This document shows, piece by piece, positions 1,961-47,108 of a stretch of 64,000 nt of DNA (the stretch's first letter is position 1; each line of letters begins with the position of its first letter). Source of the DNA: Desulfobacterales bacterium (GTDB taxonomy: Bacteria; Desulfobacterota; Desulfobacteria; Desulfobacterales; UBA5852); the NCBI GenBank assembly GCA_963674755.2, contig CAXXVS010000003.1, forward strand, positions 640,001 to 704,000, in the 5' to 3' direction. The position numbers and the translations under genes were made by a program. The notes below the pieces were generated by a model. It worked only from the letters and a program-made list of their open reading frames with translations. It was not told the origin of the DNA and did not search any database.

Positions 1961-2069
1961 GACGATAAGCCTGCGAGTAACGGGGGTTTAGGCGGGATGG
2001 AGGGGGTGCGGCGGAGTTCGTCGGAGTGGGCCCGGTGAGGGGTCTTCAGGTGGTATGGCGCACCGGGAA

Positions 2070-2163
2070 GGCCGGAAATCCCGCGACACAGCCAGCCTTA
2101 CTTATCGCTGCTTCCTTCCGGATCTGACGAGGTTCGTAAGCGTCTGTTGCGCGGGGTCCGGCC
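2070..2163 (-). ncRNA. ffs: Signal recognition particle RNA (4.5S)
   Basis: Reverse strand holds the conserved domain IV core GTCAGATCCGGAAGGAAGCAGC inside a long hairpin closed by GGCCGGA...TCCGGCC. Confidence 0.95.
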
Positions 2164-28727: not shown

Positions 28728-31454
28728 ATGATCGGCATCACCTCTTACGGCGCTTATACCCCCCGCCTGCGGCTGAGTCGGGCGGCCATCGTGCAGAGCA
28801 TGGGCTGGTTCGCCCCGGCCATCATGGCGGTGGCCCAGGGCGAGCGCGCCATGTGCAACTGGGATGAAGACACCCTCACCATGGCAGTGGCGGCTTCTCG
28901 TGACTGTTTGAAAGGCGTGGATAAAAAAGAACTGGACGGACTTTACCTGGCCTCCACCACCCTGCCTTTTGCCGACCGGCAGAACGCGGGCATCGTAGCG
29001 GCCGCCCTGAATCTGAATCGCCAGCTGGTAACGGCCGATTTTACGGCGTCCCTCAAGGCCGGCACCACGGCCCTCATGACCGCCCTGGAAACGGTCAAGA
29101 GCGGCGAGCGCCGCAACGTGCTGGTCACCGCCGGCGACAGCCGCCAGACCAAGACGGCCTACTTTTACGAAATGTGGTTCGGGGATGGCGCCGCCGCCTT
29201 CTGCGTGGGCGCTGAAAACGTGATTGCCGCCTACAAAGGGGGCTATACCGTATCCTGCGATTTCGTGGACCACTACCGCGGCGCGGACCGGCGTTTCGAC
29301 TACATGTGGGAAGAACGCTGGGTGCGGGATGCGGGCTATTCCAAGCTGATTCCCGAGGCGGTCCAAGGTCTCCTGCAAAAGACCGGGATGACGATGACGG
29401 ATGTGGATCGCCTGGTTTTCCCCTGCTTCTTCAAGGCGGAGCACCGCAAGATCGCCAAACAGTTGGGCGCGGCCCCGGAGAAGGTCGTGGACAACCTGCA
29501 TGAGGTCTGCGGCGAAACCGGGGCGGCCCATCCCTTCCTCATGATGACCCGGGCCCTGGAAGAGGCCCGGCCCGGGGAGCGCATCGTCGTGGTGGGCTTC
29601 GGCCAGGGTGCCCAGGCCCTGTGCTTCGAGGTGACCGAGCAGATCGACGAGCTGGCGCCCCGCAACGGGTTGAAGGGCACCCTGGAAAACCGCAAAGCCA
29701 CCGACAACTATCCCAAGTTTCTCAAATTCCGTGATCTCATCCAAACCGAAATGGGCATTCGGGCCGAGGCCCCCACCCAGACGGCGACGACCGTGCTTTA
29801 CCGCAAAAACAAGATGATCCTGGGCCTGGTGGGAGGCCGCTGCCGGGAGTGCGGCACGCCCCAGTTTCCCAAGGCGGATATCTGTGTCAATCCGGCCTGC
29901 GGCGCCTATCACAGCCAGGACGATTACGAATTTGCCGACGTGCCGGCCTCGGTCAAGACCTTCACCGGCGACATGCTCTCCGTGTCCGTGGATCCCCCGG
30001 CCATCTATGGCATGGTGCAGTTCGAAGGCGGGGGACGCTTTATGGCGGATTTTACGGACTGCGAGTTGGGCGAGCTGAAGGTGGGCTTGCCCGTGCGGAT
30101 GGCATTCAAGCGCAAGGGCGTGGACCGGGAGCGGGGCTTCAGCAATTACTTCTGGAAGGCGGTGCCCGTGCCCGGTGCGGCCGAGGCCATGAACCGCATC
30201 GACTTCGAAGGCCGGGTGGCTATCGTGACAGGGGCCGGCGGCGGCCTGGGCCGGGCCTATGCCCTGGAGCTGGCCCGCCGGGGGGCCAAGGTGGTGGTGA
30301 ACGATCTGGGCGGGTCCCGGGACGGCTCCGGTGAGGGCTCCAGTACGCCGGCGGCCAAGGTGGTGGCGGAGATCGAAGCCATCGGCGGCCAGGCCGTGGC
30401 CAACGATGACAACGTGGCCACCCCGGAGGGGGGCGAGGCCATCGTCCAGAGCGCGCTGGCGGCCTTCGGCACGGTGGACATCGTGATCAACAACGCGGGC
30501 ATCCTGCGGGACAAGAGTTTCCTTAAGATGGAACCGGCGAACTGGCAGGCGGTGTTAGGCGTTCATCTGAACGGGGCCTACCATGTGACGCGGCCGGCCT
30601 ATGCGGTGATGAAGGCGAAGGGCTACGGGCGCATCGTGATGACCACTTCGGCCGCCGGATTATACGGTAACTTCGGCCAGACCAACTATTCGGCGGCCAA
30701 GATGGGCCTGGTGGGCCTGATGAACACGCTCAAGCTGGAGGGGGCCAAATACGGGGTCAAGGTGAACACGGTGGCGCCCCTGGCGGCCTCACGCTTGACC
30801 GAGGACGTCATGCCGCCGGAGATCTTCGCCAAGATGAAGCCGGAGTTCGTGGTGCCCATGGTGGTATACCTCTGCAGCGAACAATGCGAGGGCACGGGCC
30901 AGATCTTCAACGCCGGCATGGGGTATTTCAACCGGGCGGCCGTGGCCACCGGGCCGGGCGCCCAGTTGGGCACGCCGGAAAAGCCCCCCACTCTGGAAGA
31001 CATCGAGGCCCACTGGGCGACCATCAACGATCTTAAAGCCGGCAAGGAGATCAACGATGCCACCGCAGCGCTTATGGATCTCCTGGCGCCGCCGGCTCCG
31101 GCCGCTGAGGACACCGCCCCCAAAACGGATGCCCCTGATGTGGCGGAAATCTTCAGTCGCATGCCGGAGGCCTTCCAGGCGGACAAAGCCGCCGAGGTGG
31201 AAGCGGTCTTTCAATACTGCATCACCGGCCCCGGGGGCGGGGACTGGCAGGTCACGATCACGGACGCGCAATGCCGGGTAACGGCCGGCAAAGCGGACAA
31301 ACCCACCTGCACCCTGATCATCGGGGCCGGCGATTTCGCCGACATGATCGGCGGCCGCCTGGATCCCATGCAGGCCTTTACCTCGGGCAAGCTCAGGATC
31401 GAAGGCGACGTCATGAAGTCGCAGCTCATCGGCCAGCTTTTCAAGATTGCTTAA
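28728..31454 (+). CDS. HMG-CoA-synthase-like / DUF35 zinc-ribbon-OB-fold / SDR / SCP2 fusion
   Basis: IGITSYGAYTP...DEDTLTMAV thiolase fold, CRECG...CVNPAC ribbon with OB fold, SDR motifs, C-terminal SCP2. Confidence 0.88.
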   Translation: MIGITSYGAYTPRLRLSRAAIVQSMGWFAPAIMAVAQGERAMCNWDEDTLTMAVAASRDCLKGVDKKELDGLYLASTTLPFADRQNAGIVAAALNLNRQLVTADFTASLKAGTTALMTALETVKSGERRNVLVTAGDSRQTKTAYFYEMWFGDGAAAFCVGAENVIAAYKGGYTVSCDFVDHYRGADRRFDYMWEERWVRDAGYSKLIPEAVQGLLQKTGMTMTDVDRLVFPCFFKAEHRKIAKQLGAAPEKVVDNLHEVCGETGAAHPFLMMTRALEEARPGERIVVVGFGQGAQALCFEVTEQIDELAPRNGLKGTLENRKATDNYPKFLKFRDLIQTEMGIRAEAPTQTATTVLYRKNKMILGLVGGRCRECGTPQFPKADICVNPACGAYHSQDDYEFADVPASVKTFTGDMLSVSVDPPAIYGMVQFEGGGRFMADFTDCELGELKVGLPVRMAFKRKGVDRERGFSNYFWKAVPVPGAAEAMNRIDFEGRVAIVTGAGGGLGRAYALELARRGAKVVVNDLGGSRDGSGEGSSTPAAKVVAEIEAIGGQAVANDDNVATPEGGEAIVQSALAAFGTVDIVINNAGILRDKSFLKMEPANWQAVLGVHLNGAYHVTRPAYAVMKAKGYGRIVMTTSAAGLYGNFGQTNYSAAKMGLVGLMNTLKLEGAKYGVKVNTVAPLAASRLTEDVMPPEIFAKMKPEFVVPMVVYLCSEQCEGTGQIFNAGMGYFNRAAVATGPGAQLGTPEKPPTLEDIEAHWATINDLKAGKEINDATAALMDLLAPPAPAAEDTAPKTDAPDVAEIFSRMPEAFQADKAAEVEAVFQYCITGPGGGDWQVTITDAQCRVTAGKADKPTCTLIIGAGDFADMIGGRLDPMQAFTSGKLRIEGDVMKSQLIGQLFKIA
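30266..30822 (+). repeat. Near-identical direct repeat (SDR coding block), copy 2
   Basis: Matches 27470-28026. Confidence 0.92.
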
Positions 31455-31467
31455 AGGGAGGTATCAC

Positions 31468-32679
31468 ATGGCTACCGGCATCAAAGATAAAGTCGCCATC
31501 ATCGGCATGGGCTGCACCCAATTCGGCGAACGCTGGGAGGTGGGCGCCGAGGAGCTCATGGTGGAAGCCTTCGAGGAGTGCCTTGCCGATGCGGGCATTG
31601 CCAAAAACGATATCGAAGCGGCCTGGATGGGCACCTGTTTCGACGAGATCAGCGTGGGCAAGAGCGCTCTGCCCCTTGCCATCAGCCTGCGGCTGCCCTT
31701 CATCCCGGTGACCCGGGTGGAGAATTTTTGCGCCACCGGCACCGAGGCCTTCCGGGGCGCGGTCTACGCCGTGGCCTCGGGCGCCTACGACATCTGTCTG
31801 GCCATGGGCGTGGAAAAGCTGAAAGACACGGGCTATGGCGGGCTGCCCAGCTTCGTGGGCTCCAATGCGGGCAGTCTCAACTGGCAGTGGTTTCCCAACC
31901 TGACAGCTCCCGGAACCTTTGCCCAGCTGGCTTCGGCCTATGCCGCCAAATACCGCATCAAGGATCAGGACCTCAAGCGGGCCATGGCCCACGTGTCTGC
32001 CAAAAGCCATGCCAACGGGGTGCTCAACCCCAAGGCCCACCTGCGCAAGGCCGTCAGCGAGGAGCAGGTCATGGCCGCCCCCATCATTGCCCACCCTCTG
32101 GGCCTGTTCGACTGCTGCGGGGTGAGTGACGGGGCGGCCTGCGCCATCGTGACGACTCCCGAGATCGCCGCCAAACTGGGCAAGAAGAATATCGTCTCCG
32201 TAAAGTCCCTGCAACTGGCCTTAAGCAATGGGGAGGAGATGGGGTACAACGACTGGGACGGGGAGCATTTCGTCACCACCAGCAAGGCCAGCACGAAGGC
32301 CTACCAGGAAGCCGGCATCGCCAATCCCCGGGAGGAGATCAGCATGATGGAAGTGCACGACTGCTTTTCCATCACCGAGCTGGTGACCATGGAGGACCTG
32401 CATATCTCCGAGCGGGGCCGGGCCGTATTCGACATCATGGACGGGTTCTACGACCGGGACGGGCAGGTGCCCTGCCAGGTGGACGGGGGACTCAAATGCT
32501 TCGGCCACCCCATCGGCGCCTCCGGCCTGCGTATGCTCTATGAGATGTACCTCCAGTTCCACGGCCGGGCCGGGGAGCGCCAGCTGGAAGATCCCAAATT
32601 CGGATTGACCCACAACCTGGGTGGCTTCCCCCAGATGAACGTCTGCTCGATTGCCATCCTGGGGCGCTATGGGGCTTAG
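31468..32679 (+). CDS. SCP2-type thiolase (acetyl-CoA C-acyltransferase family)
   Basis: VENFCATG, SDGAAC, EVHDCF, GHPIGASG, HNLGG. Confidence 0.92.
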   Translation: MATGIKDKVAIIGMGCTQFGERWEVGAEELMVEAFEECLADAGIAKNDIEAAWMGTCFDEISVGKSALPLAISLRLPFIPVTRVENFCATGTEAFRGAVYAVASGAYDICLAMGVEKLKDTGYGGLPSFVGSNAGSLNWQWFPNLTAPGTFAQLASAYAAKYRIKDQDLKRAMAHVSAKSHANGVLNPKAHLRKAVSEEQVMAAPIIAHPLGLFDCCGVSDGAACAIVTTPEIAAKLGKKNIVSVKSLQLALSNGEEMGYNDWDGEHFVTTSKASTKAYQEAGIANPREEISMMEVHDCFSITELVTMEDLHISERGRAVFDIMDGFYDRDGQVPCQVDGGLKCFGHPIGASGLRMLYEMYLQFHGRAGERQLEDPKFGLTHNLGGFPQMNVCSIAILGRYGA

Positions 32680-32682
32680 ACC

Positions 32683-32847
32683 GTTCATCCAGAAACGGCA
32701 TCTTGTGGCCCAGGTTTGCGTTCTCGCGTTTTTGAAATCCTTGACGTAGCCCTAACTACGCGACGCTGACGCTCATACGGCTACGCCGTCGGTTTCAAAA
32801 GTGCTGCGGCCTTGGCCTGAACCAAAATCTACCCTTTCTGGATGAAC
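32683..32847 (+). repeat. Long imperfect palindromic repeat, family 1 copy 3
   Basis: GTTCATCCAGAAA...TTTCTGGATGAAC termini; TGGCCC/GAACCA, GCGTT/GCCTTG, ACGTAGC/GCTACG core. Confidence 0.8.
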
Positions 32848-32999
32848 TTCAATTCTATGCGTGTCACCATGAGTGTTGTAATCGTCAATCATTGTGCAAT
32901 CGGTTCGAGATGAAGAGGTGAGCATTTTCACAGTGATGTCATGATGAATTCGAGGCAGTATCGTATTACTTTACAGCTGATTCACCGGGAATCTTGAAA

Positions 33000-33329
33000 A
33001 TGCTGGAAATGACCGTCATACCCGATTCCGCCGTGGCGGACATCTTTGCTTCCAAATGCTGCGGGGGCGGACTGCCGGATCAGAATTTGGAGATCCGGAT
33101 CGCCAACCGGGGCGAGGCGGCCGTTGCTCTCCAGAGCCGCTTCCGGTTGGAGGGGACGGGCGGCCGCCGGATTGCTCCGGGCGAGGTGGCTGCGCTCTAT
33201 GCGGACATGGACCCGGCGCTTTTAGCCAGATTCCAGGTGATCGTTCTATTTGATGATGGTGGCAAGACGCATCGTTTCCCCCTCGCCGGCGGCGCGGAAA
33301 TCCCGGCTGTCCCGGAGAAAGGCGCCTGA
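33000..33329 (+). CDS. Hypothetical protein
   Basis: About 109-aa ORF ending 2 nt before the next gene; no family recognised. Confidence 0.5.
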   Translation: MLEMTVIPDSAVADIFASKCCGGGLPDQNLEIRIANRGEAAVALQSRFRLEGTGGRRIAPGEVAALYADMDPALLARFQVIVLFDDGGKTHRFPLAGGAEIPAVPEKGA

Positions 33330-33331
33330 CC

Positions 33332-33781
33332 ATGCTGCTGACCCCCGAAGAAGCCCAAGCGTTTATGGAGAAACCTTTTGCCTTCGTAGAACGCGCCGGT
33401 GTGAAGGCCGTCGTCATGGAACCCCGGCGGATCAAGCTATGGCTTCCGCTGGAAGGCAATACCAACCACATCGGCTCCATCTATGCCGGCGCCCTTTTCA
33501 CGGTGGCTGAGCTCCCGGGGGGCGCGTTGTTCCTGACCACCTTTGACGTCACACGCTTTTATCCGGTGCTTAAAGCCATGAATATCCGTTACCGGCGGCC
33601 GGCGTTTACGGATGTGACCGTAGACGTTTCCCTGACGGAAGAGGAAGCCCAACGCATCGCCGAGGAAGCCGAACGTCTGGGAAAGTCCGAATTCACGCTG
33701 AACGTGGAAGTCTTGGACGCGGACGACCGCGTGGTGGCGGAAACCGAAGGCATCTATCAGTTGCGCAAGACAGAGGCGTAA
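33332..33781 (+). CDS. Hotdog-fold thioesterase (PaaI/YiiD C-terminal-like)
   Basis: GNTNHIGSIYAGALFTVAE, IRYRRPA. Confidence 0.85.
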   Translation: MLLTPEEAQAFMEKPFAFVERAGVKAVVMEPRRIKLWLPLEGNTNHIGSIYAGALFTVAELPGGALFLTTFDVTRFYPVLKAMNIRYRRPAFTDVTVDVSLTEEEAQRIAEEAERLGKSEFTLNVEVLDADDRVVAETEGIYQLRKTEA

Positions 33782-33817
33782 CCCGATCACGAACCACCCA
33801 CCATTTTAGAGGTCTCT

Positions 33818-34960
33818 ATGAACATTCTGCAATATACGGCCGAACACGACGCCTTTCGCAACCAGCTGCGCGAATTTCTGGCCAGGGAAGCGATACCCTA
33901 TGCCGACCAGTGGGAAATGGATCGCATCGTTCCCCGGGAGCTTTGGCGCAAGATGGGTCAGGCCGGTTATTTATGCATGGACGTGCCTCCGGAATACGGG
34001 GGGGCGGGGCGCGATTTTCTCTATTCCGTCATCGTGACCGAAGAACTTTCCCGCACGGGCATTACCGGTATTGCCGCCGCCCTGCACAGCGATATCGTGG
34101 TGCCCTATATTTCCGCTTTCGGAACGGAGGCGCAAAAACAGCGTTATCTTCCGGGCTGCATCAACGGTGAGATCGTCACGGCCATCGCCATGACCGAACC
34201 GGATGCGGGCAGCGATCTGGCGAGTGTCCGTACCCTGGCGGAGGAAGACGGCGACATGGTGGTGCTCAACGGCGCCAAGACGTTTATCTCCAATGCCCTG
34301 CTCTGCGATCTGGTGATCGTGGCGGCCCGGGATGCGGATCTCGACAACCCCCACCTGGGGCTTTCCCTCTACCTGGTGGAGGACGGCAGCGAGGGCTTCA
34401 AGCGGGGCCGTCATCTGAAGAAAATGGGATGGCACAGCCAGGACACGGCCGAGCTGTTTTTTACCAACTGCCGGATACCGGCGGCCAACCGTCTGGGGGC
34501 CAAGGGCTACGGATTCATCATGATGATGGAAAAACTTCAGCAGGAACGCATCATCGCGTCGCTGGGGGCGGTGGCGGCGGCCGAGCGGATCATGGAGTGG
34601 GTGCGGGCCTTCTGCGCCGCCCACAAGGAAGGCGACCGCCCCCTGATCAAGCGCCAGGCCGTGCAGTTTGCCATCGTGGAAATGACCACCGAAGTCAAGC
34701 TCGGGCGCACCTTTATCGACAAGCTGGTGGCCGACCACATGGAGGGGCAGAACGTGGTGGTGGAGACCTCCATGGCCAAGTACTGGACCACCGAGATGGT
34801 CAAACGGGTGGCGGACCGCGCGATGGACCTGCTGGGCCCCCACGGCATACGCGACGACCACCCCATCGTCCGGGCCTTCCGGGATGTGCGGGTGATGTCG
34901 ATCTTTGCCGGGACCAATGAGATCATGAAGGGCATTGCGGCCAAATTCATGCGATTATAG
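33818..34960 (+). CDS. Acyl-CoA dehydrogenase (LCAD-like)
   Basis: AMTEPDAGSD, GAKTFISN, IFAGTNEIMK. Confidence 0.94.
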   Translation: MNILQYTAEHDAFRNQLREFLAREAIPYADQWEMDRIVPRELWRKMGQAGYLCMDVPPEYGGAGRDFLYSVIVTEELSRTGITGIAAALHSDIVVPYISAFGTEAQKQRYLPGCINGEIVTAIAMTEPDAGSDLASVRTLAEEDGDMVVLNGAKTFISNALLCDLVIVAARDADLDNPHLGLSLYLVEDGSEGFKRGRHLKKMGWHSQDTAELFFTNCRIPAANRLGAKGYGFIMMMEKLQQERIIASLGAVAAAERIMEWVRAFCAAHKEGDRPLIKRQAVQFAIVEMTTEVKLGRTFIDKLVADHMEGQNVVVETSMAKYWTTEMVKRVADRAMDLLGPHGIRDDHPIVRAFRDVRVMSIFAGTNEIMKGIAAKFMRL

Positions 34961-35103
34961 CATCCACTCCAGGAATGGTCTTTTTGGCCCTGATCTTCGT
35001 TCTCCTCGGGTTTAGCGGCTGCGGCGTACTGGCGTACGCCTCACCGCAAACCCTCGTCGGGCCTCGATCAGAACCAAAAATCCTCATTCCTGAAGAGGAT
35101 GCT
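34959..35103 (+). repeat. Long imperfect palindromic repeat, family 1 copy 4
   Basis: AGCATCC..CAGGAATG...CATTCCTG..GGATGCT termini; TGGCCC/GAACCA, CGTT/GCCTCG, GGCGTAC/GTACGCC core; overlaps the upstream stop codon. Confidence 0.8.
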
Positions 35104-35217
35104 GGCGGAGCGCGGCGATAATAAGATAATGGTTCGCCTTGCCTGACAGGCAAAGTCAGGTTTGGATAGATTCTTCTCTGACCATGCAACTTTATTGAAG
35201 ATTTGGAGGCGGGAAAA

Positions 35218-37071
35218 ATGGCCCAAGTCATTGCCGATCGCCGGGATGTGGATTTTGTGCTTTACGAGCAGCTGGAGGCCGAAACCCTTTGCGGTCATGC
35301 GGCCTACCGCGAATTCAACCGCAAGACCTTCGACCTGATCATCGATGAGGCCCGCCAGCTGGCTGTCAAGGAGATCCTGCCGACTTTAGCCGAGGGGGAC
35401 CGGGAGGGGTTGCTATTTGAAAATGGGCAAGTGCGGGTGCCGGACTGTTTCCGGCGGCCCTACAAGCTGTTTATCGAGGGGGAATGGACGGCCCTCACGG
35501 CTGATCCCGACCTTGGGGGGCAGGGGCTGCCGTATCTCGTGGCCCAGGCGGTGACGGACTATCAACTGGGGGCCAACTACGCCTTTACTCTCTTCGGTTT
35601 CGGCTGCGTGGGGGCCGGTGAGATGATCGAGATCTTCGGCACGGAGGAGCAGAAGAAGCTTTTCCTGAAGAAGATGTATACCGGACAGTGGGCCGGCACC
35701 ATGGTGCTGACCGAGCCCGAAGCCGGCTCGGATGTGGGGGCCCTGACCACCTCGGCCCGTAAGCAACCCGACGGGACCTATCTGATTGCGGGCAACAAAA
35801 TCTTCATCAGCGGTGGCGAGCACGACCTGACCGAAAACATCATCCATCCGGTCCTGGCGCGCATTGAGGGGGCCCCGGCCGGCATCAAGGGCATCTCCCT
35901 GTTCATCGTTCCCAAGATTTGGGTCAACCCGGACGGTTCTTTGGGGGCACCCAACGACGTGGTCTGCACCGGCATCGAGGAGAAGATGGGCATCCATGCC
36001 AGCCCCACCTGCTCGCTATCCTTCGGCAGCAAAGGGCAGTGCCGGGGCCTGCTGCTGGGGGAGGAGCACCGGGGCATGAAGGTCATGTTTCACATGATGA
36101 ATGCGGCCCGGCTGCTGGTGGGGGCCATCGGTTTCACCAGCGCCTCGGCGGCCTACCTGTACGCCCTCAACTACGCCCGGGAGCGACGCCAGGGGCGGGA
36201 TCTGGAAAAGACCTTCGAGCCGGACGCCCCCCAGGTGCCGATCATCCGCCACCCGGATGTGCGCCGCATGCTCATGTGGATGAAGGTTCACGTGGAAGGC
36301 ATGCGCAGCCTCCTTTACTACGGGGCCCTGCTGATCGACAAGATCAAGTGCGCCGCCGACGATGCGGAACGCGCCTATCACCAGGGCCTGCTGGATTTGC
36401 TGACGCCGGTGATCAAGGCCTACTGCACCGACCGGGGCTTTGAGGTCTGCTCCGAGGCCGTCCAGGTCTACGGCGGCTACGGCTACACCCGGGAATACCC
36501 GGTGGAGCAGCTCCTGCGGGATGTGCGCATCGCTTCCATCTATGAGGGCACCAACGGGATCCAGGCCATGGACCTGCTGGGCCGTAAGATCGGCATGCAA
36601 AAGGGACAGGTCTTCATGAACTTCATGGGCGAAGTCAACCGGATCGTGGCCCGCGCCCGGGAAATAGACGCCCTGGCCGATTTGGCGGACAAGGTGGAAA
36701 AGGCCCTCAACCGGCTGGGCGAAACGGCCATGCACCTGGGGCAGACCGCCATGAGCGCACAGTTCCGCACAGCCTTCGCCCATGCCACGCCGTTCCAGGA
36801 AACCATGGGGGACGTGGTCATGGCCTGGATGCTGCTCTGGCGGGCCGTCGTTGCCGCGCCGCAGTTGGAAACGCTGCTGGCGGATCTGGATGAAGATGCC
36901 CGGCAGGAAAAAATCGCCAGCCATAGGAACGCCGCTTTCTACCACGGTCAAATTCTCTCGGCGCGCTACTTTATCAACAGCCTGCTGCCCGTAACCCACG
37001 GCAAGATGGACGCCATCCTGGCGACCGAAACCGCGGTGGTGGCTATGCCGGAGGCCGGTTTTGGCGGCTGA
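35218..37071 (+). CDS. Long acyl-CoA dehydrogenase
   Basis: LTEPEAGSD, KIFISGGEHD, EEKMGIH, GGYGY, IYEGTNGIQAMDL. Confidence 0.94.
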   Translation: MAQVIADRRDVDFVLYEQLEAETLCGHAAYREFNRKTFDLIIDEARQLAVKEILPTLAEGDREGLLFENGQVRVPDCFRRPYKLFIEGEWTALTADPDLGGQGLPYLVAQAVTDYQLGANYAFTLFGFGCVGAGEMIEIFGTEEQKKLFLKKMYTGQWAGTMVLTEPEAGSDVGALTTSARKQPDGTYLIAGNKIFISGGEHDLTENIIHPVLARIEGAPAGIKGISLFIVPKIWVNPDGSLGAPNDVVCTGIEEKMGIHASPTCSLSFGSKGQCRGLLLGEEHRGMKVMFHMMNAARLLVGAIGFTSASAAYLYALNYARERRQGRDLEKTFEPDAPQVPIIRHPDVRRMLMWMKVHVEGMRSLLYYGALLIDKIKCAADDAERAYHQGLLDLLTPVIKAYCTDRGFEVCSEAVQVYGGYGYTREYPVEQLLRDVRIASIYEGTNGIQAMDLLGRKIGMQKGQVFMNFMGEVNRIVARAREIDALADLADKVEKALNRLGETAMHLGQTAMSAQFRTAFAHATPFQETMGDVVMAWMLLWRAVVAAPQLETLLADLDEDARQEKIASHRNAAFYHGQILSARYFINSLLPVTHGKMDAILATETAVVAMPEAGFGG

Positions 37072-37526: not shown

Positions 37527-38912
37527 ATGCCTTTCGTGCACTTGATATTGGATGCGGAGGATTCCCCCGACGGTGGCGGGATGGATGAGGTGCTGTATCC
37601 TTCCCTGGAGGCGTTTCGTTCCGCCGGCATTACGGCCACCGGTTTTATGGTGGACACACGCGATGTGCAACGCGCCGAAGCGGTTGTACGAGCGTTGCGC
37701 ACGGACCCGGCCACCTACCTTTTGCCGATTTTTCTATCGCGGGATTTAGGTCCCCGCCTGGCCGCGCTGTGCGACGGCATACCTTCCGGTCAACAGGCGC
37801 GTGACGACCGCATGCAGCGCCTGCGGCATCGGATGCAGAAGCTTGCGCCCGAGGTGGAGCGGCAGGACCAGGATTTTCGTCTGCTGGCCTATTTATACTG
37901 TCGTCCCGAAACGGTCCTGGCCCCGATCGAGGATTGGCAGCAACGCGCCATCTACACCTATCCCCTCGCCGAAGTGCTGGCCGACGAAGGCAACCAGGCC
38001 GGCCCCTGGCTGCGACAGCTCGTCGAACGTCGCTATCTGGAACCCGCCCGTCTCGTAGGCCGGGTACGGCATTGCCCCACGTGTGAAGGCTGCCATCATA
38101 ATTACGTCGACATTTGTCCCCATTGCACCAGTATTGCCATTGCGGCCAAGCCGTTCCTGCACTGTTTTACCTGCGGCCATGTGGCCCCGGAGGAGACCTT
38201 TATCAAGGAAGGGCGTCTGGTGTGTCCCCATTGCCGGGCCAAGCTGCGTCATATCGGGGCCGACTATGATCGTCCGATGGACAACTACGCCTGCCAGGAT
38301 TGCGGCCAGAGTTTCGTGGAGCCCAATGTCGTCGCCCAGTGCCTGGGCTGCGGGGCGCGCAACGATCCTGACAAACTCATCCCGGAAGATATCCATACCT
38401 TCCAGCTGAGCGAGCGCGGCCGATCGGCCGCACGTACCGGGAGCCTGGAAGATATCTACGCCCTGTTGGACGATCTCAATTACGTGCGAACGCCTTACTT
38501 CGAATCCCTGGTGGACTGGCTGCATGCGCTTTGCCGGCGCTATGATGAAGAGGTCTTCAGCCTGCTGGGAATCCGTCTGAAGAATATCGAAACGCTTACC
38601 GATCGGCTGGGGCGTCATCGGACGGCCCAATTGATCGACGCCTTCGCGGTGCGCCTACGGGAGTCCATCCGTCTCACCGATTTGACCACCCGCGCCAGCA
38701 AGCGCAATCTCTGGATCCTGCTGCCCAAAACCGGGGCCGCCGGCCGCGATATCCTGAAGTCGCGGATTGTCGAGCTCAAAAAACAGACCCGCCAGGAGGA
38801 AGACGTGGCGCTCGAATTCGACGTGGTGGCCTACACCGCACCGGATGACATGCTGCCGGACGAGCCGTCCCGTCTGACCATGGCGCGCATCATGGGAGGG
38901 GAGGCCGCATGA
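37527..38912 (+). CDS. Cys-rich zinc-ribbon (TackOD1-like) protein with a degenerate GGDEF domain
   Basis: Six CxxC motifs and LRHIGADYDRP; C-terminal GGDEF fold with RLTD I-site and ASKRN in place of GGDEF. Confidence 0.78.
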   Translation: MPFVHLILDAEDSPDGGGMDEVLYPSLEAFRSAGITATGFMVDTRDVQRAEAVVRALRTDPATYLLPIFLSRDLGPRLAALCDGIPSGQQARDDRMQRLRHRMQKLAPEVERQDQDFRLLAYLYCRPETVLAPIEDWQQRAIYTYPLAEVLADEGNQAGPWLRQLVERRYLEPARLVGRVRHCPTCEGCHHNYVDICPHCTSIAIAAKPFLHCFTCGHVAPEETFIKEGRLVCPHCRAKLRHIGADYDRPMDNYACQDCGQSFVEPNVVAQCLGCGARNDPDKLIPEDIHTFQLSERGRSAARTGSLEDIYALLDDLNYVRTPYFESLVDWLHALCRRYDEEVFSLLGIRLKNIETLTDRLGRHRTAQLIDAFAVRLRESIRLTDLTTRASKRNLWILLPKTGAAGRDILKSRIVELKKQTRQEEDVALEFDVVAYTAPDDMLPDEPSRLTMARIMGGEAA

Positions 38913-40246
38913 CGGAAATATTGCGCCAGGCGGCTGAAATGCTCCTCCAACTGCTGCTCAGCCCCTTCAACCAGGGCTTTTGGGAGTTCATCCTCAAGTT
39001 TATCCCCTATGTGGTGTTTTTCGAGCTGCCCATCTACCTGTTGATTTTTGCCGGCATCGTGCGCTACGTGCTGCGCCGCTACTGGCGTGTACCCATACGG
39101 CGGCCCTACCGGCCCATGGTCAGCTGCCTGATCACCTGCTATGCGGAGGGCCGCGAGGTGGCATGTACGATCCGGTCCCTCTCGGAGCAGCTCTATGAGG
39201 GGGCCATCGAAATCATCGCCGTGGTGGATGGGGCCGCCCGGAACACGGCCACCCTGGAAGCGGCCCTGGATCTGACCGACATGGTGAATGCACGGCACGA
39301 CCGTCGCCTGACGGTCCTGCCCAAATGGCAGCGCGGCGGTCGGGTGTCCGCCCTGAATGCCGGCCTGAATATCGCCAAGGGATCGGTGGTCATGGCCCTG
39401 GACGGCGACACCTCTTTTGACAACACCATGGTGGCGTGCGCCGTACGGCATTTTGTGGACCCCAATGTGATCGGGGTAGCCGGCTGTCTGCGGGTGCGCA
39501 ACGCCGGGCGCAGCATTGTCACGCGCCTGCAGGCCATCGAATACATGCTCTCCATCCATGCCAGTAAGGTGGGGCTGAGCGAATTCAACATCGTCAACAA
39601 TATCTCGGGCGCCTTCGGGGTGTTCCGGGCGTCTTTCCTGCGGGCCATCGGGGGCTGGGACAGCGGCACGGCCGAAGACCTCGACATCACCCTGCGCATG
39701 AAGAATTATTTCGGCCGCCATCCGAATCTGCGGATCCGCTTCGAGCCGGAAGCCGTAGGGCACACCGACGCCCCGGAGACCTTGCGGGATTTTCTCAAGC
39801 AGCGTCTGCGCTGGGACGGGGATCTTTTCTACCTTTACGTGCGCAAGCATTCCATGAGTTTCACCCCCAATCTTCTGGGCTGGCGCAATCTCATCATGCA
39901 GCTATGGACCGGTATGTTTTTCCAGCTTGTGATGCCTTTCGTGATTCTGGCCTACACCCTTTACGTCATGGTGTTCTACCCACCGGCCTGGGTGCTGGCC
40001 GTGTGGGCTCTGGTCTATCTCTTCTACCTGGCGGTAACGCTGGTGTTTTTCATTATGTACATTGTTTTTCTGTCCGAACGGCCGGGACCGGATCTCAAGC
40101 TGGCGGTCTGGCTGCCGCTAGTGCCGATATTTACGTTCATCACGCGCATCTGGTGCGGTGTGTCGACCCTCAATGAAGGGCTTTTACGATCCCATCTGGA
40201 CTCCACCATGGCGCCCTGGTGGGTTTTGCGAAAGACCAAGTACTGA
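38909..40246 (+). CDS. Processive GT2 glycosyltransferase (polysaccharide synthase-like)
   Basis: VDG, DGD, SGAFG, TAEDLD and QRLRW motifs with N- and C-terminal TM helices. Confidence 0.9.
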   Translation: MTEILRQAAEMLLQLLLSPFNQGFWEFILKFIPYVVFFELPIYLLIFAGIVRYVLRRYWRVPIRRPYRPMVSCLITCYAEGREVACTIRSLSEQLYEGAIEIIAVVDGAARNTATLEAALDLTDMVNARHDRRLTVLPKWQRGGRVSALNAGLNIAKGSVVMALDGDTSFDNTMVACAVRHFVDPNVIGVAGCLRVRNAGRSIVTRLQAIEYMLSIHASKVGLSEFNIVNNISGAFGVFRASFLRAIGGWDSGTAEDLDITLRMKNYFGRHPNLRIRFEPEAVGHTDAPETLRDFLKQRLRWDGDLFYLYVRKHSMSFTPNLLGWRNLIMQLWTGMFFQLVMPFVILAYTLYVMVFYPPAWVLAVWALVYLFYLAVTLVFFIMYIVFLSERPGPDLKLAVWLPLVPIFTFITRIWCGVSTLNEGLLRSHLDSTMAPWWVLRKTKY

Positions 40247-42450
40247 TGGATTCAGGTTATCGTCATAGGGTGGCTCTTGTTTGCGGGCATATGGGGTTTT
40301 TCTTCGCCTTTTTTCTGGTCCTGTGTGTGCCGACGGCCGCCTTGGCCATGGAGACCCTTTCCTTGACGGAAATGGAGGCCGCCATCGCGGATGCCCCTCC
40401 CGTTTTGGTGGCGGCGGCCGCCCTGGAAGAAAGCCTTGCCCGTCTCGAAAGGGAGCAGGCCGCCAGCGGTTTGCAGATCCTGGGAAGCGGCGGCACGGGA
40501 TACTACAGGGAACCCACCGACGAAAACCAGGTGCGGGACTACAATCAGGCTTTTGGCCGGCTGTCACTGCGCTACCCCCTCCTGGGCACGCGGGATCAGG
40601 AGCGGTTGGACATCCTGGCCGCGGAAGCCGGGACCTGGGAGCGGCGCCAAAAGATGGCGGCGGCGCGTTTGACCGGTCTCAAGGTCCTGCGGGAAGCGTA
40701 TGTCCGCTACTGGGGCGGGGCCCGCCGTCTGGCCCTCGGCAGGGCCTTCCTGGAGGATCGGGCCTTGGTCGTCCAGGCCCTGGAAAAACGCCGGCGGGAA
40801 GGCTTTCTGCTGGATGCCGATCTGCAGGAGGTCTTGTCCGCCTTTGATCTGGCCGAGCGGCAGATGGCCAACGACCGTGCCGACCGCAAACGGGCGTTGG
40901 CCATCATCAATCTCCTGATGCGCACCCATTATTCCGCCTTCCACTGCCTGCCGCCGGTGCTGCCCCCCTCCTGCCGGGACGAGGATCGTCTGGTGGCCGC
41001 CATCTTGGATGCCCACCCTGAGATCATGCGGCTGCGCGGACGGGTTGACGAAGAGATGGGGGTCCTCAAGCTGAATCCCCTGAGCGACCTGGAGGCCCAC
41101 GCCGATTTGACGGGGTACGCCTCCCAGGATTTCCCGGTCGGGGAATCCGGCTATGGGGTGGCCCTGACCTTCCATTTTCAGATGCCGGCCGATATCGGCC
41201 AGGCGGTTTCGGCCCGCCGCCGCATGGCCCGGGCGGCCTTGCGGCAACGGCAGTTGGAACTGGAACAGCGCAGCGGCGAGCTGTTGGCCGAGGCCCGCGA
41301 GGCCTTGGCGCGTGTCGAGGCGGCCCGCGGCAACGTGGCCTTTGCCCGTCAACGAACCCGAACGGCATTGGAGCGCCTGCGGGAGAATACGCTGCGCAGA
41401 GGATTTCTGTCCGGCGATACGATCGAAACGCTGCAGCAGAGCCGATTTCGCTATTACCAGGCGGCCCTGGATCTGGTGGAAGCCGAGGTTCTCCAATTGG
41501 AGGCCCAGTCCAATCTGCTGCAATTCGGTGCCGGCGACTGCGGCGCGCTGGAGACCGCCCTGGCCGACTGGTCAGCGGATTCCGTCATCCCCAACGATCC
41601 TGCCTCTCCCGAATGGCTGGCCTGGCCCAAAGCCGCGCCCGATGACGGAGAAAAGACACCTCCGGTGGCGTATGCGGCATCCTCGGACGACATCGGGGTC
41701 TACCTCTGGCAGAGCAATGCCCTTTTGGCGTCGGAGGCCGGTCGTCCGGATTTTTGGCGCAGGCTGCGGGAAGCCGGGATCAACCGCCTGCTGATATCCC
41801 TCGACAGGGAACAGATCCGCAGGGCGGCCACCCCTGCCGGCGCCGGGCGGGTGCGTCGCTTCATTGCCGACGCCCATCGGCAAGGCGTCGCGGCGGACCT
41901 ACTGCTTGGAGAACCGAGCTGGATTTTGCCGGGGAAGCGGCGCGACCTTTTGGCCATCGTGCAGTCGCTGGAAGCCCTGCCGTTTGACGGGTTGCACCTG
42001 GATCTCGAACCGAACCAGCTGGACCCGGCGCTTTTTTCCGAAGAATACCTGTTGGCTCAGCTGGTGCGAACCATCGCCGCGGTGCAGCGGGTGAGTCCTT
42101 GGCCCGTGGGGCTCAGCGTGCATCCGCGCTATCTGGAAAAGAGCAACTTCAACTTTTGTCTGGGCTGTGCCCTGAGCAATCTCGACCTGGCCGAGGTGGT
42201 TCTCATGATCTATGTGGCGACACCGGAGCAGGCCGCCGACCGGGCGGCGCCGCTTATTGAGGCTTATCCGCAGATCCCCTTTTCCATTGCGGTCAGTGTG
42301 GAACCCTTTGTGGAGGGCGGCGCCAGCTGGGCGTCCATGGGACGGCGCAAGGTGCGTGAAGCGGGGCGCCATCTCTCCGCGGCCCTGGGTCACCATCTGA
42401 AACAACTCATCGTCCAGTCCTGGAGCGACTGGGAGCGGATGGTCCCATGA
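40246..42450 (+). CDS. TolC/OEP-like outer membrane protein fused to a TIM-barrel glycoside-hydrolase-like domain
   Basis: Signal peptide, OEP-type helical/beta pattern, Pro/Asp linker, then GVYLW...LLLGEPSW...FDGLHLDLEP. Confidence 0.7.
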   Translation: MDSGYRHRVALVCGHMGFFFAFFLVLCVPTAALAMETLSLTEMEAAIADAPPVLVAAAALEESLARLEREQAASGLQILGSGGTGYYREPTDENQVRDYNQAFGRLSLRYPLLGTRDQERLDILAAEAGTWERRQKMAAARLTGLKVLREAYVRYWGGARRLALGRAFLEDRALVVQALEKRRREGFLLDADLQEVLSAFDLAERQMANDRADRKRALAIINLLMRTHYSAFHCLPPVLPPSCRDEDRLVAAILDAHPEIMRLRGRVDEEMGVLKLNPLSDLEAHADLTGYASQDFPVGESGYGVALTFHFQMPADIGQAVSARRRMARAALRQRQLELEQRSGELLAEAREALARVEAARGNVAFARQRTRTALERLRENTLRRGFLSGDTIETLQQSRFRYYQAALDLVEAEVLQLEAQSNLLQFGAGDCGALETALADWSADSVIPNDPASPEWLAWPKAAPDDGEKTPPVAYAASSDDIGVYLWQSNALLASEAGRPDFWRRLREAGINRLLISLDREQIRRAATPAGAGRVRRFIADAHRQGVAADLLLGEPSWILPGKRRDLLAIVQSLEALPFDGLHLDLEPNQLDPALFSEEYLLAQLVRTIAAVQRVSPWPVGLSVHPRYLEKSNFNFCLGCALSNLDLAEVVLMIYVATPEQAADRAAPLIEAYPQIPFSIAVSVEPFVEGGASWASMGRRKVREAGRHLSAALGHHLKQLIVQSWSDWERMVP

Positions 42451-43553
42451 AAGTACGGTTTCGATCCCCCAAACAGCAGGCACCGGAGCGCGAGCAGGGG
42501 ATGCGCGTTTCCTATGCGCCCGCCAAACGTGTGATGGCACGCTGGCGCTGGTACCTCATTTTGATTTTGGTCTCCCTGCCGCTGATCTACCTCGTCGGTC
42601 AGATTTTGTACGGCTGGCTGATCGTTTCGGCACCCGGCTATGTGACATTGCGCAAGACCCCGGTCAACAGCCAGATCGCGGGCGTCCTGCTGGATATTGA
42701 GGTGCGGACCGGCGAAACCGTGTCGGCGGGGGCGGTGCTGGCCCGGTTGCAGAACGCGGCCATGGACAGCCGCGAGGCCGTATTGACGGCGGAGCGCGAG
42801 GCCCGGGAGAAGGCTCTTGCCGCAGCGCCGAAACTTTCTTTCGACCCCGACCGGATGCAGCGTCGGTTGTCGCTGGCGGCTGAAATGGTCGCCTACCGGC
42901 GGCGCAACCGGGACGATGTGCAATTTCTTTTCGAACAGGGGGCCGCCACCCGCGCCGAACTGCAGGCGGCCGAAAACCAGTTGCACGAAGCCCTGCTCAA
43001 TTACGAAAACGTGGAAGCCGATTTGGGCCGAATGCAGGCTCAAATCGTGCGCGCCTCGGCCACAGGCGAGGATGAGCTCGTCCAGCTGCAGGTGGTGCGG
43101 GCCGAACTGGCGGCTTTGCACCAGGCCCGCGAGGCGCTCATCCTGCACAGCCCATCCGCCGGCCGGGTGTTGGAGCTCCTGGCCGAAGCGGGCCAGAGTC
43201 TCGCGCCGGGTGATCCGATTCTCTTGCTGGGCGATACCTCCCAACCGGAGATCATGGCCTACCTGGACGCCCGATACGCGGCTTACGCCAACAAGGGCCA
43301 GCCGGTGACGGTGCAGTTTCAAAACGGACATAAAGCGCCCGGTGTCGTGATTCGTGCCCCTGAAATAACACGACGTCTGCCGGCCGCCGTCAGTTCCCCC
43401 ATGGGCTCCCGGGAGAATCGCCTGCTGGTGCCGATCCAACTGTTGCCCGGCGGGACGCCGGAACCCCTTGTGGAAGGTCTTCCGGTAACGGTTCGCTTTC
43501 CTTTTCGTTTCTTCCCGGATGCCGGCAACGGCGGCCTTGCCATTTCCCCCTAG
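42447..43553 (+). CDS. HlyD-family membrane fusion protein
   Basis: One TM helix, lipoyl half-motifs (IAGVLLDIEVRTGETV; SPSAGRV) around a coiled coil. Confidence 0.85.
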   Translation: MKVRFRSPKQQAPEREQGMRVSYAPAKRVMARWRWYLILILVSLPLIYLVGQILYGWLIVSAPGYVTLRKTPVNSQIAGVLLDIEVRTGETVSAGAVLARLQNAAMDSREAVLTAEREAREKALAAAPKLSFDPDRMQRRLSLAAEMVAYRRRNRDDVQFLFEQGAATRAELQAAENQLHEALLNYENVEADLGRMQAQIVRASATGEDELVQLQVVRAELAALHQAREALILHSPSAGRVLELLAEAGQSLAPGDPILLLGDTSQPEIMAYLDARYAAYANKGQPVTVQFQNGHKAPGVVIRAPEITRRLPAAVSSPMGSRENRLLVPIQLLPGGTPEPLVEGLPVTVRFPFRFFPDAGNGGLAISP

Positions 43554-44900: not shown

Positions 44901-47108
44901 ATGAGCCGAAAAGCGCTGAACATCACCATGACGAGAAACACCGCGTTTGCGCGGCACCGCCATCTTGTCGCGGCCGCCGGATTAGCGTTTGCCATTGCCG
45001 TTGTTACGGTCCACTCGGCCTGGCGCGGCGCCGACAAACCGGCGGGAACCTTTTTTGCCTTGGCAGCCCTTGCGGCGTTGCTGATCATTGTCGGCCTGGT
45101 GATATTCCGACTGTGGGCCGCCAACCGAACCTTGTCTACTGCGTTGGACCAGCAAACAACGGACCTGTTGCAAGCCAACGCCAACCTGCGGGCTGAAATC
45201 GACGAACGGCGCCAGGCGGAGCTGGCCCTGATGCGTTACAAGTCGCATCTCGAAATCCAGATCAAGGCCGGCACCTGCAACCTCCAGAAAGAGGTCATGG
45301 ACCACCGCCAGGCCCGGGAGATGCTCAGCGAATACCATCTGGCGCTGGAAGCCTCCGATGAGATGGTCACGGTCCTGGACCGCCGTTACATCTTCCGTAT
45401 GGTCAACGACGCCTACCTCAAGCGGCGCAGGACGGCCCGCGAGAAAATCATCGGCACCTCCATTGTCGATGCCATCGGCGAGGACGCCTTCCATGCCATC
45501 AAGCCCCATCTCGAGGCCTGCTTCCAGGGGGAAGTGGTGGAATATGAAATGGTGCGGGAAAACCATACCATGGGGAAGCGCCACCTGCTCGTGCGCTACT
45601 ACCCGGTCCGTTCCGCCTCCGGCCGCGTCAACCGCGTGGTGAGCGTGATCAAGGACATCACCGCCGTCAAACGGGCCGAGGAGGACCGTGAACGATTGTT
45701 CAGCCTGTCCATCGATCCCATTTGCGTGGCGGACTTCAACGGGTATTTCAAGGATCTCAATTCGGCCTGGACCCGGGTTCTCGGTTGGTCCAAGGAGGAG
45801 CTGCTCAGCATTCCCTGGTTTTCCTTCGTGCATCCCGACGATGCCGCCGCCACCGAAGCTGTTGGACGCAAACTCACCGCGGGCGAATCCGTCCGGGATT
45901 TCCGCAACCGGTATGTGGGCAAGGACGGCCGTATCTGTTGGCTCGAGTGGAATGTGACCCCCGACGTCCAGGAAGGGCTCATTTACGCCGTAGCAAGGGA
46001 TGTGACCGATCAGATCAAATCCCAGGAGAAGATCAAACTCAACGAAGAACGGCTGCAATCCCTGCTGAAGCTGAGCCAGATGAGTAGTGTGAGCGATGAA
46101 AAAATTCGCGCTTACGCCCTCGAAGAGATTGTACGCCTGACCCGCAGCAAGGCGGGCTACCTGCATTTTGTAAACGAGGAAACCCAATCGCTTGAGCTGG
46201 TGGCATGGTCCAAGGACGTCCGGCAGGCCTGTCGGGCGGACAAGACCCGTCATTATGCCCTGGACAAAGCCGGTGTGTGGGCCGACAGTGTCCGCCTGCG
46301 CCGCCCCATCATTCACAACGATTTCCAAAATGTTCCCGACAAGAAGGGCATGCCCGCAGGGCATTTCCCCATCCATCGCCATATGAGCGTTCCGGTGATG
46401 GACAACGGCCGCATCGTGGCCGTGGCCGGAGTGGGCAACAAGGAAACGGATTACAACGAATCGGACGTCAACCAATTGACATTGTTCATGACCAGCATGT
46501 GGTCCATCATCAAACAGAAGCGGGCCCAGCAGATCCTGAAGAAATACTCCATGGAGGACGGCCTGACCGCTCTGGCCAATCGCCGTCGTTTCGATGCCGC
46601 TCTGGAGAGCGAGTGGCAGCGCGCCATGCGGGAGCAAAAGCCCCTGGCCCTGATCATGATGGATATCGACTATTTCAAAGGCTTTAACGATATCTACGGC
46701 CACCAGGCCGGTGACGATTGCCTGAAGAAGGTGGCGGCCTGTCTGCGGAAGAATGTCCGCCGGGCCGGCGATCTGGTGGCGCGCTACGGCGGCGAAGAAT
46801 TCGTTGTGGTATTGCCCAACACCGATCTGGCGGGCGGGCGCGAGGTGGCCGAAACCATGCATCGCACGGTACGGGACATGAAGCTCCGTCATAAGGGCGC
46901 CCGCGGGCGGGATTATTTGACCATCAGCGCCGGCGTGGCCTCCGGCATCCCCAGGCAGGGGCGGGGGGCGGCTGAACTGCTGGAAAAGGCGGACCGGGCC
47001 CTATACCGGGCCAAAGGGGCCGGACGCGACTGTGTCAAGTCTGATGCGGGATCTACTGAGTCGCCTGGCGGACAGCCGGAGCGGATGCCGGCGGCCAACT
47101 TCGGGTAA
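44901..47108 (+). CDS. Membrane-anchored PAS-PAS-GAF diguanylate cyclase
   Basis: Two TM helices, two PAS/PAC domains, GAF, DGLTALANRR, DIDYFK, RAGD I-site, intact GGEEF. Confidence 0.93.
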   Translation: MSRKALNITMTRNTAFARHRHLVAAAGLAFAIAVVTVHSAWRGADKPAGTFFALAALAALLIIVGLVIFRLWAANRTLSTALDQQTTDLLQANANLRAEIDERRQAELALMRYKSHLEIQIKAGTCNLQKEVMDHRQAREMLSEYHLALEASDEMVTVLDRRYIFRMVNDAYLKRRRTAREKIIGTSIVDAIGEDAFHAIKPHLEACFQGEVVEYEMVRENHTMGKRHLLVRYYPVRSASGRVNRVVSVIKDITAVKRAEEDRERLFSLSIDPICVADFNGYFKDLNSAWTRVLGWSKEELLSIPWFSFVHPDDAAATEAVGRKLTAGESVRDFRNRYVGKDGRICWLEWNVTPDVQEGLIYAVARDVTDQIKSQEKIKLNEERLQSLLKLSQMSSVSDEKIRAYALEEIVRLTRSKAGYLHFVNEETQSLELVAWSKDVRQACRADKTRHYALDKAGVWADSVRLRRPIIHNDFQNVPDKKGMPAGHFPIHRHMSVPVMDNGRIVAVAGVGNKETDYNESDVNQLTLFMTSMWSIIKQKRAQQILKKYSMEDGLTALANRRRFDAALESEWQRAMREQKPLALIMMDIDYFKGFNDIYGHQAGDDCLKKVAACLRKNVRRAGDLVARYGGEEFVVVLPNTDLAGGREVAETMHRTVRDMKLRHKGARGRDYLTISAGVASGIPRQGRGAAELLEKADRALYRAKGAGRDCVKSDAGSTESPGGQPERMPAANFG

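Follow-up and report, generated by a model that had tools for sequence, protein, structure and literature searches.

A four-gene glycosyltransferase cassette with a co-encoded TolC-barrel fusion, a candidate c-di-GMP-controlled exopolysaccharide export system in a Desulfobacterales bacterium

In Shewanella oneidensis MR-1, the mxdABCD operon (mxdA is SO4180) encodes MxdA, a cyclic di-GMP (c-di-GMP) receptor with an NVDEF motif, MxdB, a membrane glycosyltransferase (GT) of family 2 (GT2), MxdC, which has efflux-pump homology, and the hypothetical protein MxdD; the Mxd polymer is itself putative (PMC3691769, PMC7666153, PMC13713693; here and below, published systems are given as described in the papers cited). 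Aggregation and three-dimensional biofilm formation depend on the operon (PMC3691769, PMC7666153). Binding of c-di-GMP by MxdA has been reported, as have flat biofilms in mxd mutants (PMC7666153). For BgsAB of Sinorhizobium meliloti, a tripartite complex with TolC has been proposed, and loss of tolC abolishes glucan production (PMC13438883). Whether TolC conducts polysaccharide directly is called an open question there and in a cyanobacterial review, partly because the loss of a shared TolC is pleiotropic (PMC13438883). Here we describe a cassette of four genes at positions 37527-43553 of a 64,000-nucleotide stretch of DNA from a Desulfobacterales bacterium (contig CAXXVS010000003.1, positions 640,001 to 704,000; the whole stretch is referred to as the window). 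The cassette encodes a regulator, a GT2 synthase, a TolC-like channel fused to a TIM barrel, and an HlyD-type adaptor.

On the strength of sequence comparisons and predicted structures, we think it probable that these genes form one conserved cassette by which a biofilm exopolysaccharide would be made when c-di-GMP rises and exported through its own adaptor-TolC duct without a separate pump. The domains of the proteins, the folds predicted for genes 1 and 3, a dead GGDEF domain with its RxxD site intact, and the co-inheritance of the four genes are direct observations. With a TolC of its own, the cassette allows direct TolC conduction to be tested cleanly, and it occurs in genetically tractable genera, Stutzerimonas and Pseudomonas.

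Four overlapping genes and their products

All four genes lie on the forward strand, and each overlaps the next, by ATGA (38909-38912), TGATG (40244-40248), and ATGA (42447-42450), in agreement with the translational coupling proposed in a first-pass annotation of the window. That annotation had further described a Cys-rich protein with a degenerate GGDEF domain, a processive GT2 (D,D,D,QxxRW), a TolC-like protein fused to a glycoside-hydrolase-like barrel, and an HlyD protein, with no ATP-binding cassette (ABC) or resistance-nodulation-division (RND) pump, Wzx/Wzy, or tetratricopeptide repeat (TPR)-porin gene among the four. Domain searches and predicted structures bore out each of these descriptions, as detailed below.

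Gene 1 (37527-38912) encodes an MxdA-like soluble regulator of 461 aa. Pfam assigned residues 112-294 to TackOD1 (E 4.8e-65), a domain whose function is called obscure in the literature and which matched none of 14 control genomes, and residues 333-423 weakly to GGDEF (E 4e-7). The predicted structure, with a predicted local distance difference test score (pLDDT) of 92.7, comprises a pseudo-receiver (residues 1-106), the TackOD1 zinc-ribbon with six CxxC motifs, and a GGDEF domain (residues 311-461). In structure comparisons of this model, the first of these parts matched receiver-like folds (Z 10.5, root-mean-square deviation [rmsd] 2.7, 104 residues aligned) and the last matched GGDEF folds (Z 15.6, rmsd 2.9, 143 aligned). 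We read the N-terminal domain as a pseudo-receiver because only 20 of 103 alignment rows keep the Asp that ends receiver strand 3.

The RxxD site of this GGDEF domain is intact (R382-D385), with R382 present in 97% and D385 in 100% of 115 rows. Among 232 homologues of at least 400 aa, RxxDxxxR/H occurs in 227 and GG[DE]E[FY] in none. While RxxD is conserved, the position of the GGDEF motif is hypervariable: it reads RASKRNL in the window protein, xx[DE]E[FYI] follows the conserved Arg in 79 of the 232 homologues, locus L117 has NADEY, and the MxdA-type NVDEF was found in none of the homologues examined. A dead GGDEF domain that retains RxxD points to a c-di-GMP receptor and not to a cyclase, as established for PelD, and the gene 1 product is likely a receptor of this kind, its GGDEF domain catalytically dead.

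Gene 2 (38909-40246) encodes a processive membrane GT2 of 445 aa, which is MxdB-like and about the size of PgaC. The Pfam GT2 match (E 2e-19) is accompanied by the motifs D107, D165xD167, T254AED257, and Q298RLRW302, all conserved in a 44-row alignment. Hydrophobic segments span residues 27-55 and 328-418, and the protein ends shortly after the second; neither Pfam nor NCBIfam detected a PilZ, CelA, or other appended C-terminal domain. The lack of an appended c-di-GMP domain fits a separate receptor, namely, gene 1. The top NCBIfam model was PgaC_IcaA, at 144.9 bits against a cut-off of 422.3, followed by NodC, and identity to an annotated PgaC was 28%.

Gene 3 (40246-42450) encodes 734 aa when read from the ATG at 40246, the start used here; the list of open reading frames (ORFs) begins it at the GTG at 40219. 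Pfam recognized the OEP family (E 5.6e-9), and a hydrophobic segment at the N terminus precedes the TolC part. The structure predicted from a 101-row alignment (pLDDT 91.5, predicted template-modeling score 0.69) shows residues 36-430 matching TolC-family channels (Z 25.6, rmsd 3.9, 390 aligned) and residues 477-734 forming an eight-strand TIM barrel of the glycoside hydrolase (GH) type. From the topology of TolC, the barrel would be expected to lie in the periplasm. Its top fold match was Cwp19 (Z 18.8-18.9, rmsd 3.5, 246 aligned), followed by GH1 enzymes (Z 17.4-17.5), GH18 enzymes (Z 16.8-17.3), and the hydrolase domain of PgaB (Z 16.4); since the Cwp19, GH1, and GH18 folds score within about 2 Z units, we assigned the barrel to no single GH family. 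A sequence search of the barrel against solved structures returned no match, and the nearest named Atlas clusters were GH18 (0.90).

In the barrel, all 101 alignment rows keep D586, E588, and E686, and M654 and Y656 are nearly invariant; the DxE is placed after strand 4. The GH18 signature is DxxDxDxE, and at its second acidic position 91 of the 101 rows have His. This substitution would suit a barrel with no catalytic role, acting as a sugar-binding guide or as a surface anchor instead of a hydrolase, as would the absence of any Pfam or NCBIfam family match to the barrel and the existence of one locus that keeps TolC without it. We nonetheless consider a non-catalytic barrel very unlikely, given how strictly the acidic residues and their two near-invariant companions are kept.

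The TolC-barrel fusion represents a large family for which Pfam and NCBIfam hold no model: a barrel profile recovered at least 379 clusters at 50% identity. The TolC part was present in all 108 proteins of at least 600 aa among the best 150 barrel matches, a count that reflects a profile built largely from these same proteins. Stand-alone barrels with hydrophobic N termini also occur among the matches, and in three metagenome loci TolC and barrel are separate ORFs. They are likewise separate genes, located after the GT gene, on a Methylocystis plasmid (L011:6643-13035), where a pump composed of a major facilitator superfamily (MFS) protein, HlyD, and an outer membrane factor (OMF) lies divergently beside the cassette. 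In a genome of the same genus as the window (L050:5450-7727, G004), the TolC-barrel gene is frameshifted into ORFs of 568 and 199 aa, which is either a true break or a sequencing error.

Gene 4 (42447-43553) encodes a 368-aa HlyD-type membrane fusion protein (MFP) that is MxdC-like. Pfam assigned it to HlyD_3 (E 1e-12), NCBIfam agreed on the HlyD type, and hydropathy indicates one N-terminal membrane segment. An N-terminal motif of F5, Y23, and W35 is present in 44 of 44 rows, with G18 in 42. In a plasmid collection, the adaptor matched six records, all of them cassette loci in which the regulator and the GT are present too.

Each of the four genes is present in a single copy in the genome, and a single-protein search of the genome contigs led to one locus. 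The G+C content of the cassette, overall and at third positions, resembles that of neighbouring genes. One public contig matches the stretch without any difference and may be where it came from. Contigs from two further studies span the four ORFs; they differ by about 1% substitutions, and the sole indel listed falls outside the ORFs, so the gene 3 fusion is not an assembly artefact.

Co-inheritance, spread, and surroundings

A metagenome scan with the GT alignment yielded 387 confirmed stretches, the best 80 of which were analysed. The family and synteny survey put forward in the first-pass annotation thereby found the set complete, with all five parts present, in 52 of these 80 loci and in two gene orders. 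Of the remaining 28 loci, 25 are cut off by contig ends; L080 is ambiguous, the barrel is missing from L065, and L071 has no adaptor. The permuted order TolC-MFP-regulator-GT occurs in 14 loci, indicating that the set itself, and not merely its order, has been kept together. Flanks differ from locus to locus. For 42 dereplicated complete loci, we scanned 78 flanking ORFs (74 of 98 listed and 4 of 5 long ones) and found no ABC, RND, or MFS family among them at E 1e-8.

The cassette is patchily distributed, its regulator being found in 1 of 60 relatives and 10 of 400 genomes of a phylum sample; 7 of those 10 adjoin a GT and a TolC-barrel gene, and HlyD was confirmed in six. One regulator gene of the phylum sample (L045) is interrupted by a 453-aa transposase-looking ORF. 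A full cassette also resides on a 29-kb mobilizable plasmid of Aeromonas caviae (L008:4563-10385), whose listed genes include no pump. The regulator of this plasmid falls into the same 90% cluster as entries from Stutzerimonas stutzeri and Raoultella, which suggests recent transfer. A homologue search started from the Aeromonas protein returned mostly pseudomonads among the named matches listed, and no protein named MxdA was among the regulator homologues listed. Two metagenome-assembled genome entries labelled Shewanella sp. fell inside Plesiomonas clusters; their labels are doubtful and they were not used.

Two plasmid loci carry TackOD1 in other settings. On a Palleronia plasmid (L012:6244-10318), a regulator gene annotated as a response regulator with TackOD1 adjoins genes for an Hpt protein, a receiver, and a kinase, followed by the GT and adaptor genes, and a phosphorelay input may here replace or add to c-di-GMP control. 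On an archaeal plasmid, from Halorussus halophilus (L013:6149-9110), a stand-alone TackOD1 gene forms an overlapping run with a DUF2334 gene and a related GT2 gene, with no adaptor or TolC.

In the window, an alpha/beta hydrolase gene (Pfam) lies directly 3' of the adaptor gene. A PAS-PAS-GAF-GGDEF protein with an intact GGEEF is encoded 1.35 kb downstream of the cassette (44901-47108, forward strand) and is a possible local source of c-di-GMP. Its gene adjoins the cassette only in the nearest relatives, and we rejected this diguanylate cyclase as a cognate partner because the cassette flanks are not conserved across loci. Upstream, at a distance of 455 bp, is a 622-aa ORF that reads as an acyl-CoA dehydrogenase. 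A forward-strand run at 28728-37071 resembles acyl-CoA or lipid degradation genes, with thiolase-like, thioesterase-like, and two acyl-CoA dehydrogenase-like ORFs and a 908-aa multi-domain fusion, all labelled by reading their sequences. Promoter and terminator scans at the locus did not rise above chance level, and an Rfam scan of the window found only a bacterial small signal recognition particle RNA (2067-2163, reverse strand), far from the cassette.

A proposed export route and its polymer

We propose that, as has been reported for MxdA, c-di-GMP would bind gene 1 at its RxxD site, whereupon gene 1 would activate the GT2. The synthase would polymerize a uridine diphosphate (UDP)-sugar and push the growing chain across the inner membrane, so that polymerization would take the place of a pump. 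HlyD would dock on the synthase through its conserved N terminus and membrane helix, making direct contact between synthase and adaptor, and bridge to the TolC trimer. In their respective systems, BcsZ, AlgL, PslG, and PgaB clear or trim stray polymer, and the three barrels beside the duct may do the same in the periplasm. The polymer we favour, tentatively, is a beta-linked chain containing N-acetylglucosamine, an N-acetylhexosamine (HexNAc): PgaC_IcaA and NodC are the best models for the GT, the barrel carries a DxE, and Cwp19 and GH18 are among its closest folds.

Several observations weigh against this route or its product. Three-gene forms in Plesiomonas, Photobacterium (twice), and Alisedimentitalea have no adjacent TolC-barrel gene, and that gene is therefore not obligatory. 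In 31 of the 78 flanking ORFs, no Pfam family was hit at E 1e-8, and 3 of the 10 phylum-sample regulators, all from one genus, are TackOD1-GGDEF genes without a GT nearby (L044, L045, and L048; G295, G147, and G239). GH1 folds fit the barrel as well as GH18 folds do, and neighbours at four loci (L009, L047, L049, and L058) point to glucose or galactose and not to HexNAc, with galE or a related epimerase in or beside the cassette in three and UDP-glucose pyrophosphorylase upstream in one. The XcsAB-TolC model is called unvalidated in the cyanobacterial review, and the authors of the BgsAB study leave an indirect role of TolC open (PMC13438883). Finally, 5 further TolC-like and 16 further MFP-like ORFs occur in the genome, making it likely that unlinked transporters are present.

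These additional ORFs, the indirect role left open for TolC with BgsAB, and the divergent pump beside the Methylocystis cassette would all be compatible with synthesis of the same polymer but with the adaptor and TolC-barrel serving an unlinked ABC, RND, or MFS transporter, for instance for an accessory protein or because the polymer leaves through a conventional pump. We regard such a division of labour as unlikely: the adaptor and TolC accompany the GT in different phyla as well as on the 29-kb plasmid with no pump listed, no pump family emerged from the flanking ORFs, and the N-terminal motif of the adaptor is conserved in the cassette family. The nature of the product allows another alternative, that of a short oligosaccharide or a surface or periplasmic glycan, NodC-like or capsule-like, whose size the barrel would set or which it would release. 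A short glycan would accord with the rank of NodC as runner-up among NCBIfam models for the GT, with the tethering of the barrel at the exit, and with the lack of a deacetylase or TPR scaffold in the cassette. The design of the cassette and its c-di-GMP site, however, fit biofilm polymer systems, and loss of mxd impairs aggregation and the building of three-dimensional biofilm, an argument that applies if orthology holds; we judge a short product quite unlikely.

Over these alternatives, we favour a biofilm polymer exported through the dedicated duct. A midpoint-rooted GT tree was built from 30 rows, taking every third row of the 44-row alignment and 15 added sequences. The three-gene GTs grouped with the four-gene GT of Aeromonas (96/95), inside a clade (100/99) that also holds the window GT, and deeper branches likewise carry TolC-barrel genes. 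Under this midpoint rooting, the three-gene forms appear to have lost TolC. At slightly less than even odds, the cassette may represent the full and ancestral version of a separate synthase-dependent secretion system for an undescribed polymer. In it, a GT2 would stand in for the pump in a tripartite MFP-TolC duct, and the dedicated TolC would bear an unnamed periplasmic GH family. Mxd-type three-gene operons would then be reduced descendants that borrow a housekeeping TolC.

Comparison with described systems

The first-pass annotation had proposed that the synthase may be the inner-membrane partner of an MFP-TolC conduit and could not match this architecture to the alginate, cellulose, poly-N-acetylglucosamine, and Pel systems. 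The route itself is plausible, given the co-inheritance with no linked pump found and the existence of precedents, but the claim that it is unmatched is not supported, since XcsAB-TolC, BgsAB-TolC, and mxdABCD are already in print. The concept of synthase-driven TolC export is thus not new. The general design is known, and the all-in-one form with a dedicated, co-encoded TolC bearing a hydrolase-like barrel was not found described; neither the four-gene cassette nor the TolC-hydrolase fusion appeared in the literature searched, which takes in few subscription papers.

Among NCBIfam models, the GT is nearest to PgaC of the poly-N-acetylglucosamine system (PgaABCD), and the barrel resembles the PgaB hydrolase domain, whereas the GT score lies far below the PgaC cut-off and the cassette has no PgaA, PgaB deacetylase, PgaD, or TPR-porin partner. 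The RxxD-only GGDEF domain of gene 1 resembles the PelD receptor in structure comparison (Z 9.7). The sfz/sfb stalk cluster (PMC8250860) was rejected as a counterpart, there being no domain here like the BcsB-like Sfz1 or the EpsE-domain GT Sfz2.

With BgsA-BgsB-TolC, which makes a mixed-linkage beta-glucan, the cassette shares a GT2, an HlyD adaptor, and TolC, along with c-di-GMP control that is predicted here, but BgsA binds c-di-GMP by its own C-terminal domain and the system apparently uses a general-purpose tolC (PMC13438883). The window GT has no such domain. Using an HlyD and CelA-like gene pair in an unannotated pSymB record, which from its position we take to be bgsBA, we found 22% identity between the window GT and the CelA-like GT (E 0.007); the latter scored 408 bits on CelA, whereas the former gave no CelA hit.

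The cyanobacterial XcsA-XcsB-XcsC/TolC system likewise combines a synthase, an HlyD-like protein, a glycoside hydrolase, and a TolC-like exporter in a proposed tripartite arrangement (PMC8892547, PMC12430437). It differs in its PilZ-bearing cellulose synthase, its separate endoglucanase, and the scattering of its genes in T. vulcanus. The window, in contrast, encodes a separate receptor, a PgaC-sized GT without the PilZ or CelA hit expected of Xcs or Bcs synthases, and a TolC encoded together with its fused barrel. Its GT is of neither the Bgs nor the Xcs synthase type.

The Mxd system, compared by published description only, shares with the cassette a degenerate-GGDEF receptor (predicted as such in the cassette), a membrane GT2, and an efflux or MFP-like gene, and the order mxdABC is that of the three-gene homologues in Plesiomonas, Photobacterium, and Alisedimentitalea. 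The window differs in having a TolC-barrel gene between the GT and adaptor genes, where none is described for Mxd, and in its alpha/beta hydrolase gene after the adaptor, where Mxd has the hypothetical mxdD. Metagenome contigs were also scanned for a portion of an mxd promoter primer from the literature, with no matches. Vibrio parahaemolyticus VPA0392-0394 are reportedly named as homologues in the original mxd paper, and a published table lists VPA0393 as a glycosyltransferase and VPA0394 as EmrA-like. By the published descriptions, Mxd matches the three-gene form in gene order and domain type. The cassette likely belongs with Mxd, and it would supply the putative Mxd polymer with a way out of the cell and with a candidate enzyme for its degradation.

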